Assembly (NCBI GenBank): GCA_016432465.1
Contig: CP066690.1
Location: 683,666-747,665 of the forward strand
Source of the DNA: Candidatus Sungiibacteriota bacterium
GTDB taxonomy: Bacteria > Patescibacteriota > Minisyncoccia > Sungbacterales > HO2-52-23
Direction: 5' to 3'
Length of the DNA: 64,000 nucleotides
In this document: piece after piece, positions 25 through 22,273 of the stretch
How positions within the stretch are numbered: the first letter of the stretch is position 1
Layout of the letters: the number at the start of each line of letters is the position of its first letter
Position numbers and translations under genes: made by a program
Notes under the pieces: generated by a model
The model's input: the letters and a program-made list of their open reading frames with translations, nothing else
Database searches by the model: none
What the model was told of the DNA's origin: nothing

Positions 25-53
25 TTGTCAAAATTATATTTTTTGCTTAAAAT
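25..53 (+). promoter_or_regulatory. sigma70-like promoter (TTGTCA-17-TAAAAT) upstream of the tRNA cluster
   Basis: TTGTCA at 25-30, 17-nt spacer, TAAAAT at 48-53. Read directly from sequence. Confidence 0.4.
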
Positions 54-114
54 TGTTTATACACGATCAGTCGCCTATTTAGGATTGTGTAGTTCAGCTT
101 GCCCCGCCACCTCT

Positions 115-409
115 GGGCGTATAGCTCAGTGGGCGAAAGACAATCCGTCTTTCGCGGGAAATTTAGTGAGCCTGCGAAGCAGTGCGAACGTAAAGAATTT
201 CCCGGGGTTTTGCCGAGAAGGTAAAACAGCGCGTCATCCCCCACTTATTTCGGACAGTATTTCGGGTGTGTAGCTCATTGGTAGAGCACTTCACTGATAA
301 TGAAGTGGTAGAAGGTCCGATTCCTTCCACACCCATTTTTAGTCCGCAATAAGTGGGGGACAAGCTGATAATGACGAGGTCCATGGTTCGATCCCATGTA
401 CGCCCACCA
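115..409 (+). ncRNA. split or interrupted tRNA-like gene. The 5' acceptor/D region GGGCGTATAGCTCAGTGGG is at 115-133. The 3' half is at 365-409: anticodon loop CTGATAA, T-arm CATGG-TTCGATC-CCATG, acceptor TACGCCC, discriminator A and an encoded CCA. About 230 nt of structured intervening sequence lies between, and it contains the tRNA-Ile gene
   Basis: GGGCGTA at 115-121 is complementary to TACGCCC at 399-405. The leader ccccgccacctc (102-113) is complementary to the trailer gaggtggcgggg (410-421). The intervening sequence carries group-I-like P and P7 candidates. The fold is unresolved. Confidence 0.35.
264..335 (+). tRNA. tRNA-Ile (anticodon GAT). The cloverleaf is complete, the T-loop is atypical (TCCGATT), and no CCA is encoded
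   Basis: Hand fold: acceptor GGGTGTG/CACACCC, D-arm GCTC-ATTGGTA-GAGC, anticodon arm CTTCA-CTGATAA-TGAAG, T-arm GAAGG-TCCGATT-CCTTC. Confidence 0.6.
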
Positions 410-417
410 GAGGTGGC

Positions 418-480
418 GGGGTGAAGTAGAACGCTATCCTGATAAGATAGAGGTCCCAGGTTCGATCCCTGGCACACCCA
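418..480 (+). pseudogene. degenerate tRNA-Ile(GAT) copy. The anticodon arm, T-arm and acceptor 3' strand (CACACCCA) are intact, but the D-arm is deleted and the 5' acceptor is imperfect
   Basis: CTATC-CTGATAA-GATAG, CCAGG-TTCGATC-CCTGG and CACACCCA are present. The 5' side reads GGGGTGAAG rather than GGGTGTG. Confidence 0.4.
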
Positions 481-523
481 TTAGAACCCAAGTTTTGGTA
501 CGGGGCACAGTAAGACAGAGGCC

Positions 524-548
524 GTAGGTTCGATTCCCACCACACCCA
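524..548 (+). pseudogene. tRNA 3'-end fragment consisting only of a T-arm and the acceptor CACACCCA
   Basis: GTAGG-TTCGATT-CCCAC-CACACCC-A. No anticodon arm lies upstream. Confidence 0.3.
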
Positions 549-613
549 GTTTTAGAAAAAGGCAAAGAATTTTAGGCGAAAAAAGGTCGATAAACGGATT
601 AAAACAAAAAATT

Positions 614-2349: not shown

Positions 2350-3039
2350 TTACGAAGCGGGCTGGAATGGGTACGGCTGATCAAAGTCGCACTTCCTGTT
2401 TTTGCACTGGAAGCGTTTGGTTTTAGCAAAACACCGCTTTTCAGTCTGACATTTAGGACAGGCCACCATCCATGAATCAGTACCCTTGTGATCGGTCTTA
2501 CGATATGGACTGGTTACCACTGGCCCAACAGCAGCATCCATCACCTCTTGTAACCACTGCTTGTGTGTTTCGTTTGTTGGTACGGGGTTGCGACCATTTG
2601 TTTTGTCTTCCTCAATCCTCCTTAGCTCATGAGTAAAAAGTCGTTTGGCGAACTCTTTGGGGAAAATATCCAAAAGCTGCATAAGGAAAAGATCCTGCCA
2701 GTCCATACCTTTTAGGGGACCCTCGCGCACCGCCGTGTCCAGAATACTTTCGGTCGTAGCCAAACGAAGAGCAAACTCAAAGTGCGGGTCAGAAAACAGG
2801 GTGTCTTTATTCACACGGGATTGTAGCTCTGTAGTAAACAGGTCAGCCATCTCTGCGGATAAACCGTCTTTCTTCAGCGAGACTATTAACGATTTCTTTC
2901 CATGGGCTACGATTAGACTTAAACAGGCTAGAGCCTGCTCCGGGGTCATGTTGTGGATTTCTCTTTGTATCTGCATTGTGGCTCTACCTATTGTTAGGAT
3001 ACGAGCCATACCCCGATCAAACACATCTAGTTTCAGCAT
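2350..3039 (-). CDS. hypothetical protein with a C-terminal zinc-ribbon (CPKC...CKNRKC)
   Basis: 229-aa ORF. The opposite-strand ORF 2645-3064 is antisense noise. Confidence 0.5.
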   Translation of the reverse strand: MLKLDVFDRGMARILTIGRATMQIQREIHNMTPEQALACLSLIVAHGKKSLIVSLKKDGLSAEMADLFTTELQSRVNKDTLFSDPHFEFALRLATTESILDTAVREGPLKGMDWQDLFLMQLLDIFPKEFAKRLFTHELRRIEEDKTNGRNPVPTNETHKQWLQEVMDAAVGPVVTSPYRKTDHKGTDSWMVACPKCQTEKRCFAKTKRFQCKNRKCDFDQPYPFQPAS

Positions 3040-3164: not shown

Positions 3165-4253
3165 ATGCCCAAGAGTGGTTCTTCAAGAGTCATTCTAGGT
3201 CTTTCCGGCGGGGTTGATTCGGCGGTGGCCGCAGCCCTTTTAAAAGACGCCGGTTTTGAAGTGATTGCACGCTACATAAAGGGGTATGCTCTTCCCGGTA
3301 TAGAGTGTCCGGAGGAGCAGGATATGCGGGATGCGCGCCTGATTGCTTTGAAGCTCGGCATTGATTTTTCGGTCGTTAGCGAGGGATCGGAACTTTATCG
3401 GCGCAGTGTTTATGAGCCGTTTCTCGCCTCTTACTTTTCCGGCAAAACACCCAATCCTGATATTTGGTGCAACCAGTTTGTAAAGTTTCCTCTGCTTGGG
3501 CAGCTTAAAGAAGAATACGGCGCTGATTTTATTGCAACCGGACACTACATCCGGAGGATAGGAGATCGGTTTTACGCGGCATCGGACACAAACAAAGATC
3601 AGTCCTATTTTCTTTATGCAGTTCCCCGAGATATTCTTAAGACCTGCCTTTTCCCCATTGGTGAACTTGCAAAGAACCGCGTTAGAGAGATGGCCAGAAG
3701 TCTTGCTCTGCCTATTGCTGATAAGCGTGGAACACGGGGCGTTTGCATGGTAGGCCAGCTTCCTATTGACGAGGCGTTGGAGTGGGCAGCCGAGGAACGG
3801 AATGAGAAGTTTGGTCCCGCGCGAGCGATATTGATTGACAAGGGCCAGGAAGTTGAGCTTGGAACACTGCCCGCGTCTAAATTCTTTTCTGCGACCATTG
3901 GGCAGAGAAGTGGTTTGGGGATCAGTCATAGGTTCCCCATTTATGTAGTAGCCAAAGACCCTAAAGTCATGAATCTTTATTTCAAGATTTTGCCGGAGGG
4001 AGAGCGTAAGTTTTCTGTATCGGATGTCAATTGGGTTGTTCCCGAAGTTCCCAAACTTCCGCAGCGCGCGCTGGTTAAAATTCGCACTCCCGGTAAAATG
4101 CTGTCCTGTAAAGTTACAGAATCAGATAACCAGATGCTTGAAGTTATTCTTGATGACCCCGATACCGGTATTGCACCCGGACAGTCAGCAGTTTTTTATC
4201 AGCTTGCCAAGGGAGGTCTTATCGAACTATGGGGAGGAGGTGTAATACAGTAG
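3165..4253 (+). CDS. mnmA: tRNA-specific 2-thiouridylase MnmA
   Basis: PP-loop SGGVDS, conserved MnmA blocks (DQSYFL, catalytic Cys region) and a C-terminal beta-barrel. An RBS precedes the ATG at 3165. Confidence 0.9.
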   Translation: MPKSGSSRVILGLSGGVDSAVAAALLKDAGFEVIARYIKGYALPGIECPEEQDMRDARLIALKLGIDFSVVSEGSELYRRSVYEPFLASYFSGKTPNPDIWCNQFVKFPLLGQLKEEYGADFIATGHYIRRIGDRFYAASDTNKDQSYFLYAVPRDILKTCLFPIGELAKNRVREMARSLALPIADKRGTRGVCMVGQLPIDEALEWAAEERNEKFGPARAILIDKGQEVELGTLPASKFFSATIGQRSGLGISHRFPIYVVAKDPKVMNLYFKILPEGERKFSVSDVNWVVPEVPKLPQRALVKIRTPGKMLSCKVTESDNQMLEVILDDPDTGIAPGQSAVFYQLAKGGLIELWGGGVIQ

Positions 4254-21921: not shown

Positions 21922-22273
21922 TGAATCCCGATAGTGTTCCTAAATTTTACTATGTCTATGTATTACGCAGCCAAAGAAATAGCAGATGGTATGTCGGTTT
22001 TACGATGGATTTACGGAAGCGCTTTAAAGAACACAATGAGGGTAAATATAATTCTTGGACACTACGGCGTCCATTCATCCCCGCAGCAAGCTACGGGGTA
22101 CTCTGGGAAGGTGGGGGGATAAAGCCGATGCTCAGTCAAGAGAAAAACAGCTTAAATCAGGTCAAGGAAGGGCTTATCTTAAACAAAGAGTAAAGCGCTT
22201 CCTAACACTATCGGGATGGAGTACAAAATTGACGCAGCCAATAAAATATTGGGACGGCTCGCTACTGAAGTAG
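21921..22273 (+). pseudogene. small GIY-YIG nuclease-domain gene interrupted by a frameshift at the G6 run (22113-22118)
   Basis: The N-terminal part (YYVYVLRS..WYVGFT.DL.KRF.EHN) is in frame 1. The C-terminal REKQLKSGQGRAYLK continues in another frame after the poly-G run. Confidence 0.55.

Follow-up and report, generated by a model that had tools for sequence, protein, structure and literature searches.

Why should a complete tRNA gene lie enclosed within the separated pieces of other tRNA genes of the same kind? The question is raised by one end of a 64,000-nucleotide (nt) stretch of a Candidatus Sungiibacteriota genome (contig CP066690.1, positions 683,666 to 747,665; hereafter the window), where a first, sequence-only reading had noticed a complete tRNA-Ile(GAT) between the two halves of a second tRNA and had offered an unusual large intron, a permuted or split tRNA, or repeated integration scars as explanations. 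We find that positions ~83-548 form a Russian-doll stack of at least three, and probably four, tRNA-Ile(GAU) copies, of which only the innermost (264-335) is uninterrupted, and that similar nests recur in other bacteria of the candidate phyla radiation (CPR). As to how such stacks arise, we consider it about evenly balanced whether the answer is the one we favor, namely repeated insertion into tRNA genes of hairpin elements with a spare tRNA as their cargo.

Anatomy of the stack

The innermost copy (Level 3 in Table 1) passes as an ordinary tRNA-Ile(GAU): ARAGORN calls it as the only gene in the 64-kb window, and it scores 71.8 bits with Rfam model RF00005 against a threshold of 29 bits. Its T-loop reads TCCGATT, with a C at the near-invariant U55, and no CCA is encoded. 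Around it lies a second copy, Level 2, whose exons (115-133, 228-236 and 365-409) match the canonical Patescibacteria tRNA-Ile gene GGGCGTATAGCTCAGCTGGTTAGAGCGCGTCACTGATAATGACGAGGTCCATGGTTCGAGTCCATGTACGCCCACCA, which begins GGGCGTATAGCTCAG and is found in L009, L068, L090 and L109 among the matches listed (L numbers denote retrieved loci). The first exon (GGGCGTATAGCTCAGTGGG, 115-133) and the 3' end (TACGCCC at 399-405, A406 and CCA at 407-409) have the matching acceptors that the sequence-only reading described, and leader and trailer do pair, over 13 bp between 102-114 and 409-421 if A409 of the CCA is counted. The second tRNA is thus interrupted, as a large intron would have it, but by two insertions rather than one, in the D-loop and at 31/32; and all pieces are colinear, with 5' pieces upstream and 3' pieces downstream, so that a permuted tRNA gene is excluded. 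The insertion at 31/32 is a 128-nt cassette (237-364) composed of a clamp arm, the complete Level-3 tRNA, a second clamp arm and CAAG; the clamp had been recognized correctly, although its motifs lie at 238-249 (CCCCCACTTATT, not 236-247) and 348-359 (AATAAGTGGGGG, not 349-360). The D-loop insertion folds into three hairpins (133-155, 155-204 and 204-227), and the hairpin motifs reported earlier are present (GCGAAAGAC at 133, GTCTTTCGC at 147, GGGAAATT at 156 and AATTTCCC at 196); the insertion (134-~226) has no Rfam match and no relative in any fetched locus. ARAGORN calls a single gene here, an outcome that had been set down as telling against a second tRNA if its halves had no partner, yet joining 115-133, ~222-236 and 365-409 in silico yields an ARAGORN tRNA-Ile(GAT) in 64 of 70 boundary combinations.

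Level 2, together with its 13-bp arms (102-114/409-421), sits in the D-loop of a further copy, Level 1 (83-101 plus 426-480). Within the 5' piece of this copy (TGTGTAGTTCA), positions 86-96 are 91% identical to 267-277 of the inner gene, and its 3' piece is 72% identical to the inner tRNA; its D-stem GUUC/GAAC is paired in the minimum-free-energy fold, and joining 83-101 to 426-480 in silico gives an ARAGORN tRNA-Ile(GAT) in 54 of 60 boundary combinations. What had appeared to be a D-arm-deleted copy at 418-480, and what Rfam scores as a weak tRNA lacking its D-arm at 417-480 (36 bits), is therefore the 3' part of Level 1, whose 5' part lies at 83-101. The bare T-arm fragment noted at 524-548 is likewise real but larger: it belongs to a 3' half (Level 0) that runs from anticodon position 36 onward and occupies 511-548. 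This half is present in all Logan contigs of the species, and no matching 5' half was found in positions 1-80. The GGTACGGGGCACAG that ends the spacer ahead of it (481-510) is, judged by its sequence, the right end of an older hairpin element at the 35/36 break. The motif CTGATAA recurs at 294, 365 and 439, and the common ending CACACCCA is found at 328, 473 and 541, as had been observed: Levels 0, 1 and 3 belong to one lineage, GGGTGTG...CACACCCA, without an encoded CCA, and Level 2 to the canonical lineage.

The stack is predicted to be highly structured. RNAfold gives -156.5 kcal/mol for 95-430, against -103 +/- 5 for shuffled sequences (z = -10.5), and -217 kcal/mol for 36-614 (z = -8.3). 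The leader-trailer arms (102-116/407-421) are 100% complementary over 15 nt and the clamp arms (237-255/342-360) 95% over 19 nt, and in arm-by-arm shuffles the observed score was reached in 0 of 2000 trials for either pair. The outermost repeat (38-77/573-612), whose left arm overlaps the predicted -10 box, is paired in the centroid fold, with a shuffle p of ~0.002.

Positions 1-452 rest on a single assembly, and every independent short-read Logan contig of the species (L001-L006, L158-L162) ends at window position ~452, inside the stack. One of these, L005, holds a different stack, with an extra level joined through ...GGCAGGCGGG/TAAGACAG (slashes in sequences mark junctions) and a compensatory CTGTC/GACAG anticodon stem; because its arrangement differs, the tRNA-Ile locus is structurally polymorphic between strains.

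Table 1. Features of the nested tRNA-Ile locus, in window positions.
Feature	Positions	Strand	Composition or remark
Promoter-like site	25-53	+	TTGTCA-17-TAAAAT; 10/12 matches; putative function
Outermost imperfect inverted repeat, left arm	38-77		40 nt, 70% complementary to 573-612
Level 1 (outer), 5' piece	83-101	+	Acceptor GATTGTG, TA, D-stem GTTC, D-loop start AGCTTG
Level-2 cassette, left arm (leader)	102-114	+	CCCCGCCACCTCT; partner 409-421
Level 2, exon 1	115-133	+	GGGCGTATAGCTCAGTGGG: acceptor GGGCGTA, TA, D-stem GCTC, D-loop AGTGGG
Level 2, D-loop insertion	134-~222	+	Three hairpins, without tRNA; 3' boundary uncertain by a few nt
Level 2, exon 2	228-236	+	AGC G CGTCA: D-stem 3' strand with one mismatch, position 26, anticodon-stem 5' strand
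Level-3 cassette, left arm	237-263	+	Clamp TCCCCCACTTATTTCGGAC (237-255) and 8-nt linker
Level 3, innermost complete tRNA-Ile(GAT)	264-335	+	ARAGORN; Rfam RF00005, 71.8 bits
Level-3 cassette, right arm	336-364	+	6-nt linker, clamp GTCCGCAATAAGTGGGGGA (342-360), unpaired CAAG (361-364)
Level 2, exon 3, 5' part	within 365-409	+	Anticodon loop CTGATAA, TGACG, AGGTC
Level 2, exon 3, 3' part	within 365-409	+	T-arm CATGG-TTCGATC-CCATG, acceptor TACGCCC, A, CCA
Level-2 cassette, right arm (trailer)	409-421	+	AGAGGTGGCGGGG; TGAA at 422-425 possibly its tail
Level 1, 3' piece, first part	within 426-480	+	D-loop end GTA, D-stem GAAC, CTATC-CTGATAA-GATAG, AGGTC
Level 1, 3' piece, last part	within 426-480	+	T-arm CCAGG-TTCGATC-CCTGG, CACACCC, A
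Spacer	481-510	+	Ends GGTACGGGGCACAG, then directly TAAGACAG; identical in L001-L006
Level 0, 3' half from anticodon position 36	511-548	+	TAA, GACAG, AGGCC, GTAGG-TTCGATT-CCCAC, CACACCC, A
Outermost imperfect inverted repeat, right arm	573-612		Partner 38-77

Recurrence of the nests and the hairpins within them

A metagenome scan with the pattern AGCGCGTCA, a gap of 110-140 nt and CTGATAATGACGAGGTC returned 31 contigs with nested or flanked tRNA-Ile, each with one complete tRNA-Ile flanked by partial copies (L144 is cut at the contig end). The layout also occurs in at least five named CPR genomes, two of Berkelbacteria (L076 and L090), one of Saccharibacteria (L117), and L009 and L068; Saccharibacteria carry related stacks that we term type A. 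A scan of genome collections with a 3'-half pattern matched ordinary tRNA-Ile and tRNA-Val genes of many phyla as well, the present genome not being among the matches listed. Several nested loci lie just after a 16S gene. Across 34 loci, 9-mers of the tRNA 5' half cover 752 nt of the upstream flanks and those of the 3' half only 71 nt, whereas downstream flanks hold 879 nt of 3'-half and 128 nt of 5'-half 9-mers, and an upstream 5' piece occurs together with a downstream 3' piece in 18 of the 34. This polarity indicates nesting and rules out tandem duplication.

Within the outer gene, the inner one is found mainly at three places: in the D-loop (L133, L136, L152; in the window, Level 2 within Level 1), between 26 and 32 (L127, L131, L141, L145, L151, L117, L135; in the window, Level 3 within Level 2), or at 35/36 (L129, L143, L146, L147, L154, L157, Level 0 of the window and the L005 strain variant). 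L157 has three levels at one and the same 35/36 site, with identical arms, and L135 is likewise nested in itself at one site with identical arms. In most loci the sequences on either side of the inner gene can pair with each other, for up to ~60 nt, and arms of this length in L128, L134 and L135 are AT-rich inverted repeats. Complete tRNA-Phe (L143) and tRNA-Met (L150) genes are followed by partial copies with twin GC-hairpin insertions, in the anticodon loop of the tRNA-Phe copy and the T-loop of the tRNA-Met copy, from which we conclude that the phenomenon is not confined to tRNA-Ile.

Many of the insertions, whether they carry cargo or are empty, share their ends. They start with 5'-(C/T)CCC and finish with ...[CT]AC-GGGG-CA(A/G)G, whereupon the exon resumes at once (the window, L068, L117, L127, L129, L131, L141 and L151). 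The tagged terminus is found at the acceptor/D junction (L129), in the D-loop (L131, L127, L068, L090 and L151), at 31/32 (window, L117 and L135) and at 35/36 (window Level 0 and L141), and the window's GGGG(A)CAAG/CTGATAA junction is shared by L117 and L135. This element also lies in antisense orientation at 29/30 in L127, L131, L141, L142 and L145, where the sense strand reads AGCGCG/CTTGCCCCGCAT...GTGCGGGG/TCACTGATAA and the exon junction is restored exactly; pairing in this hairpin is kept by compensatory changes at 5 of 16 pairs, with recurrent mismatched or wobble positions. No target-site duplication was found, the tRNA sequence being restored exactly at the flanks. Tagged hairpins also occur outside tRNAs (after the 16S gene in L129, and in L134), and within 400 nt of a tRNA, GC hairpins reach 4.3 times the density seen in the rest of these contigs.

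Other recurrent forms accompany these. A twin-hairpin insertion, TCCCGAC...GTCGGGATCCCGAC...GTCGGGA, lies between G10 and C11 (TAG/CTCAG) in tRNA-Ile copies of different lineages (L136, L140, L142, L147, L090 and L129). In type A loci (L127, L131, L141, L145 and L151) an imperfect direct repeat of ~18 nt, GAGCGC-TA-CCCCGCAC ... AGCGCG-CTTG-CCCCGCAT, flanks the inner cassette, which looks as if it had landed in an existing hairpin element with duplication. The type B arms, CCCGCCTGCC(G/A)GAGTAC ... GTACGGCGGGCAGG, have one C.A mismatch and one U.G pair in common across four lineages (L129, L143, L146 and L147), with a 4-nt GUAC bulge read by eye from the sequences.

The state of the outer copies varies. 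Some are flawless once their insertions are removed (L146, L141, L129, L157 at both of its outer levels, and Level 2 of the window), and others could not be repaired in this way: L145 has lost its D-loop and L128 its anticodon arm, the anticodon stem in L133, L136, L152, L139 and L155 has a hairpin in place of its 5' strand, and the anticodon loops of L090 and L076 are defective. In no locus did we see a hairpin-bearing copy without an uninterrupted companion (L144 being cut at the contig end), as would be expected if copies are born and die and the innermost gene alone is needed. A downstream small membrane protein (29-81% identical) is common to seven nested loci and the un-nested L059, and we take these loci to be orthologous on that account.

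Explanations for the stacks

Under the account we favor, small non-coding elements in the form of imperfect palindromes would build the stack at the DNA level, without target-site duplication. Because the tag marks one end of the element irrespective of tRNA orientation, and because the arms extend into non-transcribed DNA, we infer palindromic elements of the DNA rather than introns defined by the sense RNA. Such elements, with GC-rich arms that often read 5'-CCCC...GGGG followed by an unpaired CAAG or CAGG tag, would land in or beside the exposed loops of tRNA genes. Since the cell cannot do without this tRNA and normally has one gene for it, an insertion into the working gene would survive only if the hairpin loop carried an intact spare tRNA-Ile; the spare gene would then be a fresh target, permitting repeated rounds in which dolls accumulate, and empty hairpins would pile up only in outer copies already disabled. 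Spread between genomes could make use of the ultra-conserved tRNA exons as homology arms. Transcription of the whole stack probably starts from the one promoter (25-53), and the complementary arms may form long helices, so that the inner cloverleaf stands apart and is open to RNase P and 3'-end processing, leaving the outer pieces as by-products.

In form, these elements most resemble the tagged palindromic repeats of bacteria, namely REP/REPIN sequences with their RAYT genes, Rickettsia RPE and the PATEs derived from IS200/IS605 (Di Nocera et al., 2013; PMC3733652). In both cases the repeats are short, GC-rich, non-coding imperfect palindromes that keep mismatches and bulges, bear a 4-nt tag at one end only, occur in either orientation and apparently in several copies per genome, lack a target duplication, and can lie inside genes or other palindromes. 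The elements of the window and its relatives show the tagged imperfect palindrome, its occurrence in either orientation and its conservation with compensatory pairs; as to dispersal, there are several copies per locus and some outside tRNAs, and no clear extra copy was found in the 64-kb window. They differ in their tag (CAAG/CAGG, not GTAG or CGTC), in their targets, which are tRNA-gene loops, in the complete tRNA that the hairpin loop of some copies encloses, and in the absence of a linked RAYT or TnpA gene. Tagged, mismatched hairpins of this kind resemble substrates of single-strand-DNA (HUH/RAYT-type) transposases, and no recurrent RAYT or IS200/IS605 TnpA gene lies within 3 kb of the nests, a genome-wide scan not having been made. 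Miniature inverted-repeat transposable elements share the inverted-repeat arms but would leave target-site duplications, and were rejected.

Several observations weigh against repeated insertion of such hairpins. The innermost tRNA is the one with C55, whereas the interrupted Level 2 has a perfect T-loop and an encoded CCA, and several other outer copies (the exons of L146, L157, L141 and L129) are flawless. In the Saccharibacteria-type orthologues the outer scaffold is ~80% identical, in an alignment judged by eye, across the D-loop hairpin, the clamp and the 29/30 hairpin, while the neighboring protein is only 29-81% identical and leaders and trailers are not alignable; the 29/30 hairpin also shows compensatory changes. 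Taken together, this looks like purifying selection on a part that should be dead. It may mean that the scaffold is under selection, for example as the setting in which the essential inner tRNA is processed, or that conserved elements re-invade the same sites. Loose motif counts favor the sense strand (19:8), and the antisense reading of the window's Level-2 cassette is ambiguous. The 64-kb window contains no convincing tagged-hairpin copy elsewhere, only three loose matches that all lie inside open reading frames (ORFs); no transposase, integrase or endonuclease adjoins the stack, and clustering of ORFs within 3 kb of the nests brought out no recurrent neighboring enzyme, only the synteny markers, a small membrane protein and a PilM-like protein. 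Finally, the account does not explain how a hairpin element gains a tRNA in its loop.

An unlikely contender is that these are tRNA genes with several introns, removed by a form of protein-dependent cutting and ligation not so far known from Bacteria (a protein might recognize the base of the helix, for example, and an RNA ligase then join the ends). The inner tRNA would be the cargo of an intron, and mature tRNA-Ile would come from all the nested genes; in a milder form, the outer RNA would be a two-piece, clamp-held tRNA-like molecule or a processing scaffold. Splicing would explain why insertion boundaries restore the canonical sequence exactly and why several outer genes are flawless after removal, why the outer copy of L129 keeps colinear exons despite 4-5 insertions, why hairpin families are site-specific and conserved with compensatory changes over deep divergence, and why one promoter stands ahead of the outermost piece. 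The GC-rich complementary arms are also like those of the split tRNAs of Nanoarchaeum. Yet the same tagged element occurs in both orientations, which is hard to square with recognition of a motif in the sense RNA; every complete locus also has a copy free of interruption, and many of the outer ones could form no tRNA after removal. The arms, moreover, are much longer than an RNA signal needs and reach past the predicted transcription start, and their mismatches show no sense-strand G.U excess (GT:AC = 22:18 and 10:11, a comparison of low power). Nor is there bulge-helix-bulge geometry, which tells against an archaeal-type intron: in the predicted fold of the Level-2/Level-3 junction, 236/237 lies in a continuous helix, with CGUCA stacked on UCCCCC..., and the 3' side is an 11-nt bulge of CAAG and the anticodon loop. 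We know of no splicing endonuclease in these bacteria.

Two comparisons help to place this possibility. Like the disrupted tRNAs of archaea (bulge-helix-bulge introns of Thermoproteales, split tRNAs of Nanoarchaeum and Caldivirga; PMC4033280), the nests have multiple non-canonical insertion positions in one tRNA gene, GC-rich complementary sequences that join the halves, and a canonical tRNA on removal; they differ in their bacterial host, in lacking the bulge-helix-bulge motif, in the intact copy that always stands alongside, in an insertion that holds a whole tRNA of the same kind, and in the occurrence of the element in both orientations. Bacterial rRNA intervening sequences and CPR rRNA insertions are likewise helical insertions in essential structural RNA genes, in the same lineages, and both they and the present insertions may be removed or cut at the helix base. 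Classical rRNA intervening sequences are cut by RNase III. Whereas they leave a working, fragmented rRNA, a tRNA cut in its loop would fail, and here a spare gene is supplied.

That CPR bacteria excise hairpins by protein and rejoin the exons, with neither a ribozyme nor a bulge-helix-bulge motif, or assemble clamp-held two-piece tRNAs, and that the outer genes are thus functional, is in our judgment improbable. Were it so, this would be a third kind of intron in Bacteria, with a tRNA as cargo of another tRNA's intron, and the conservation of outer scaffolds over deep divergence would be explained; the conserved scaffolds in themselves raise the question of a third, protein-dependent form of RNA splicing in Bacteria.

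We think it similarly improbable that no mobile element is involved and that errors of replication and repair (fork stalling, template switching and quasi-palindrome extension) at highly transcribed, hairpin-prone tRNA genes produced the stacks, with selection keeping one intact copy. The arms that are long inverted duplicates of AT-rich flanks, the absence of an associated protein and of target duplication, the arrays of 5'-truncated copies without matching 5' pieces in L140 and L142, and the direct repeat of ~18 nt around the inner unit of type A loci would all suit such errors. They would not readily account for a tagged terminus and arm sequences common to different lineages and different tRNA positions, for the L157 levels that are identical at exactly the same site, for hairpins of the same family outside tRNAs, or for the alternation in the window of copies from two tRNA-Ile lineages.

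Classical integration scars, left by successive integrase-bearing elements that supplied new tRNA segments in place of the old and later lost their interior, are a very unlikely origin, although repeated scarring came closest in spirit among the explanations first offered. Pieces do begin at D-loop, anticodon-loop and T-loop sublocations, 3' fragments accumulate downstream, the locus differs between strains, and some non-CPR loci have ordinary 3' duplicates, kilobases apart (L063) or around a GIY-YIG ORF (L080). Here, however, the upstream 5' pieces follow a strict order of nesting; the two flanks of each inner gene are complementary to one another, which is not a product of att recombination; and the outer 5' half is followed by an arm and a complete gene instead of a restoring 3' half, with no hybrid working gene. 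Nested, with inverted arms and no integrase, such scars would not be classical att duplicates. The 3' repeats that exist are 70-150 nt apart, the inserts measure only ~125-320 nt in many independent lineages, and no integrase is found among the genes 0-13 kb downstream, the upstream side lying outside the window. The nests thus share with tRNA-targeting integrative elements the tRNA-gene hotspot, the supply of tRNA sequence by the element and the old fragments beside a working gene, and differ in supplying a whole tRNA rather than a displaced 3' part, in nesting with inverted arms, in having no integrase near the stack, and in insert sizes of ~0.1-0.3 kb.

We give little credence to an assembly artefact, in which a metagenome assembler would have stitched strain variants together: positions 1-452 are seen in the window alone, but exactly complementary arms around each cloverleaf are unlike mis-joins, and the same architecture occurs in more than 30 independent assemblies.

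In Patescibacteria, position 35/36 of tRNA anticodon loops does harbor group I introns (Nakagawa et al., 2026; PMC13011429), which share with the nests the phylum, the gene class and, in part, the site; both lack target duplication and both can spread by exon homology. The insertions described here differ in having no detectable catalytic core, in being far too short, in following a 5' exon that ends in A, and in bringing a spare tRNA instead of splicing themselves out. The group-I-like P and P7 segments proposed by the sequence-only reading did not hold up, as no group I, group II or ribozyme family matched in 1-700 at E<=10. A self-splicing or self-cleaving ribozyme intron therefore has next to no likelihood, despite insertions at 35/36 and the many inserts that end in G (CAAG) as group I introns do, which is not diagnostic alone: a further 14 nested loci gave no Rfam intron or ribozyme match either (E<=0.5), the U expected at the end of a group I 5' exon is replaced by G133 and A236 in the window and A35 in type B, inserts minus their tRNA cargo are only ~55 nt, and, as regards group II, inserts are 90-130 nt without an ORF. 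The group I model (RF00028) did detect a real intron in the L157 16S rRNA region upstream of the nested tRNA-Ile (3271-4058, 56.9 bits).

In the searchable full-text literature we came upon no description of tRNA loci nested in one another in CPR bacteria, nor of tRNA genes with CAAG-tagged hairpins. The phenomenon is akin to tagged palindromic repeats and disrupted tRNA genes, and the chance that it is something categorically new is small but real. If hairpins carrying a spare tRNA do insert repeatedly, then a mobile, protein-less DNA element invades an essential single-copy gene by carrying a working replacement, regenerates its own target and nests in itself, bringing the logic of selfish DNA to some of the smallest bacterial genomes. 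Such stacks are easily overlooked, as standard tRNA finders report the innermost gene only, assemblers break at them, and annotators see the outer pieces as stray pseudo-tRNAs. Saccharibacteria, among which the nests occur, have cultured representatives.

Genomic surroundings

The promoter-like site of the window, a good match to the sigma-70 type, has counterparts on unrelated CPR contigs, where TTGTCAAAAT, ~15 nt and TAAAAT precede tRNA-Ile (L007, L016, L059, L128, L131, L145 and L151). The ORF that follows the stack (614-1174) is identical to a hypothetical protein (locus tag HYW89_03750) and is an orphan, a protein search having returned only the self-match. Farther downstream lie ordinary CPR housekeeping genes, encoding MnmA, a sigma-70 factor, a short AlaRS and an FtsA-like protein; close MnmA relatives were found on contigs of <=3.7 kb. 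No link to phages emerged: BLAST against phages gave only ~80% matches at the level of the tRNA, and pattern scans of IMG/VR gave zero matches.

The sole minus-strand gene in the first ~23 kb (2350-3039) encodes a 229-amino-acid (aa) protein with a weak C-terminal match to an IS1595-type zinc ribbon (E 0.006), and this gene and the orphan ORF could be a small inserted island beside the tRNA locus. In a few loci from several phyla, small GIY-YIG ORFs (~77-80 aa) lie directly downstream of tRNA-Ile (L007 5516-5755, L016 5003-5239, L128 808-1038, L031 4563-4798 and L080 433-639), that of L080 between a complete tRNA-Ile and its 3' duplicate. A stretch of the window at 21945-22079, 21 kb from the stack, is weakly similar to these ORFs.

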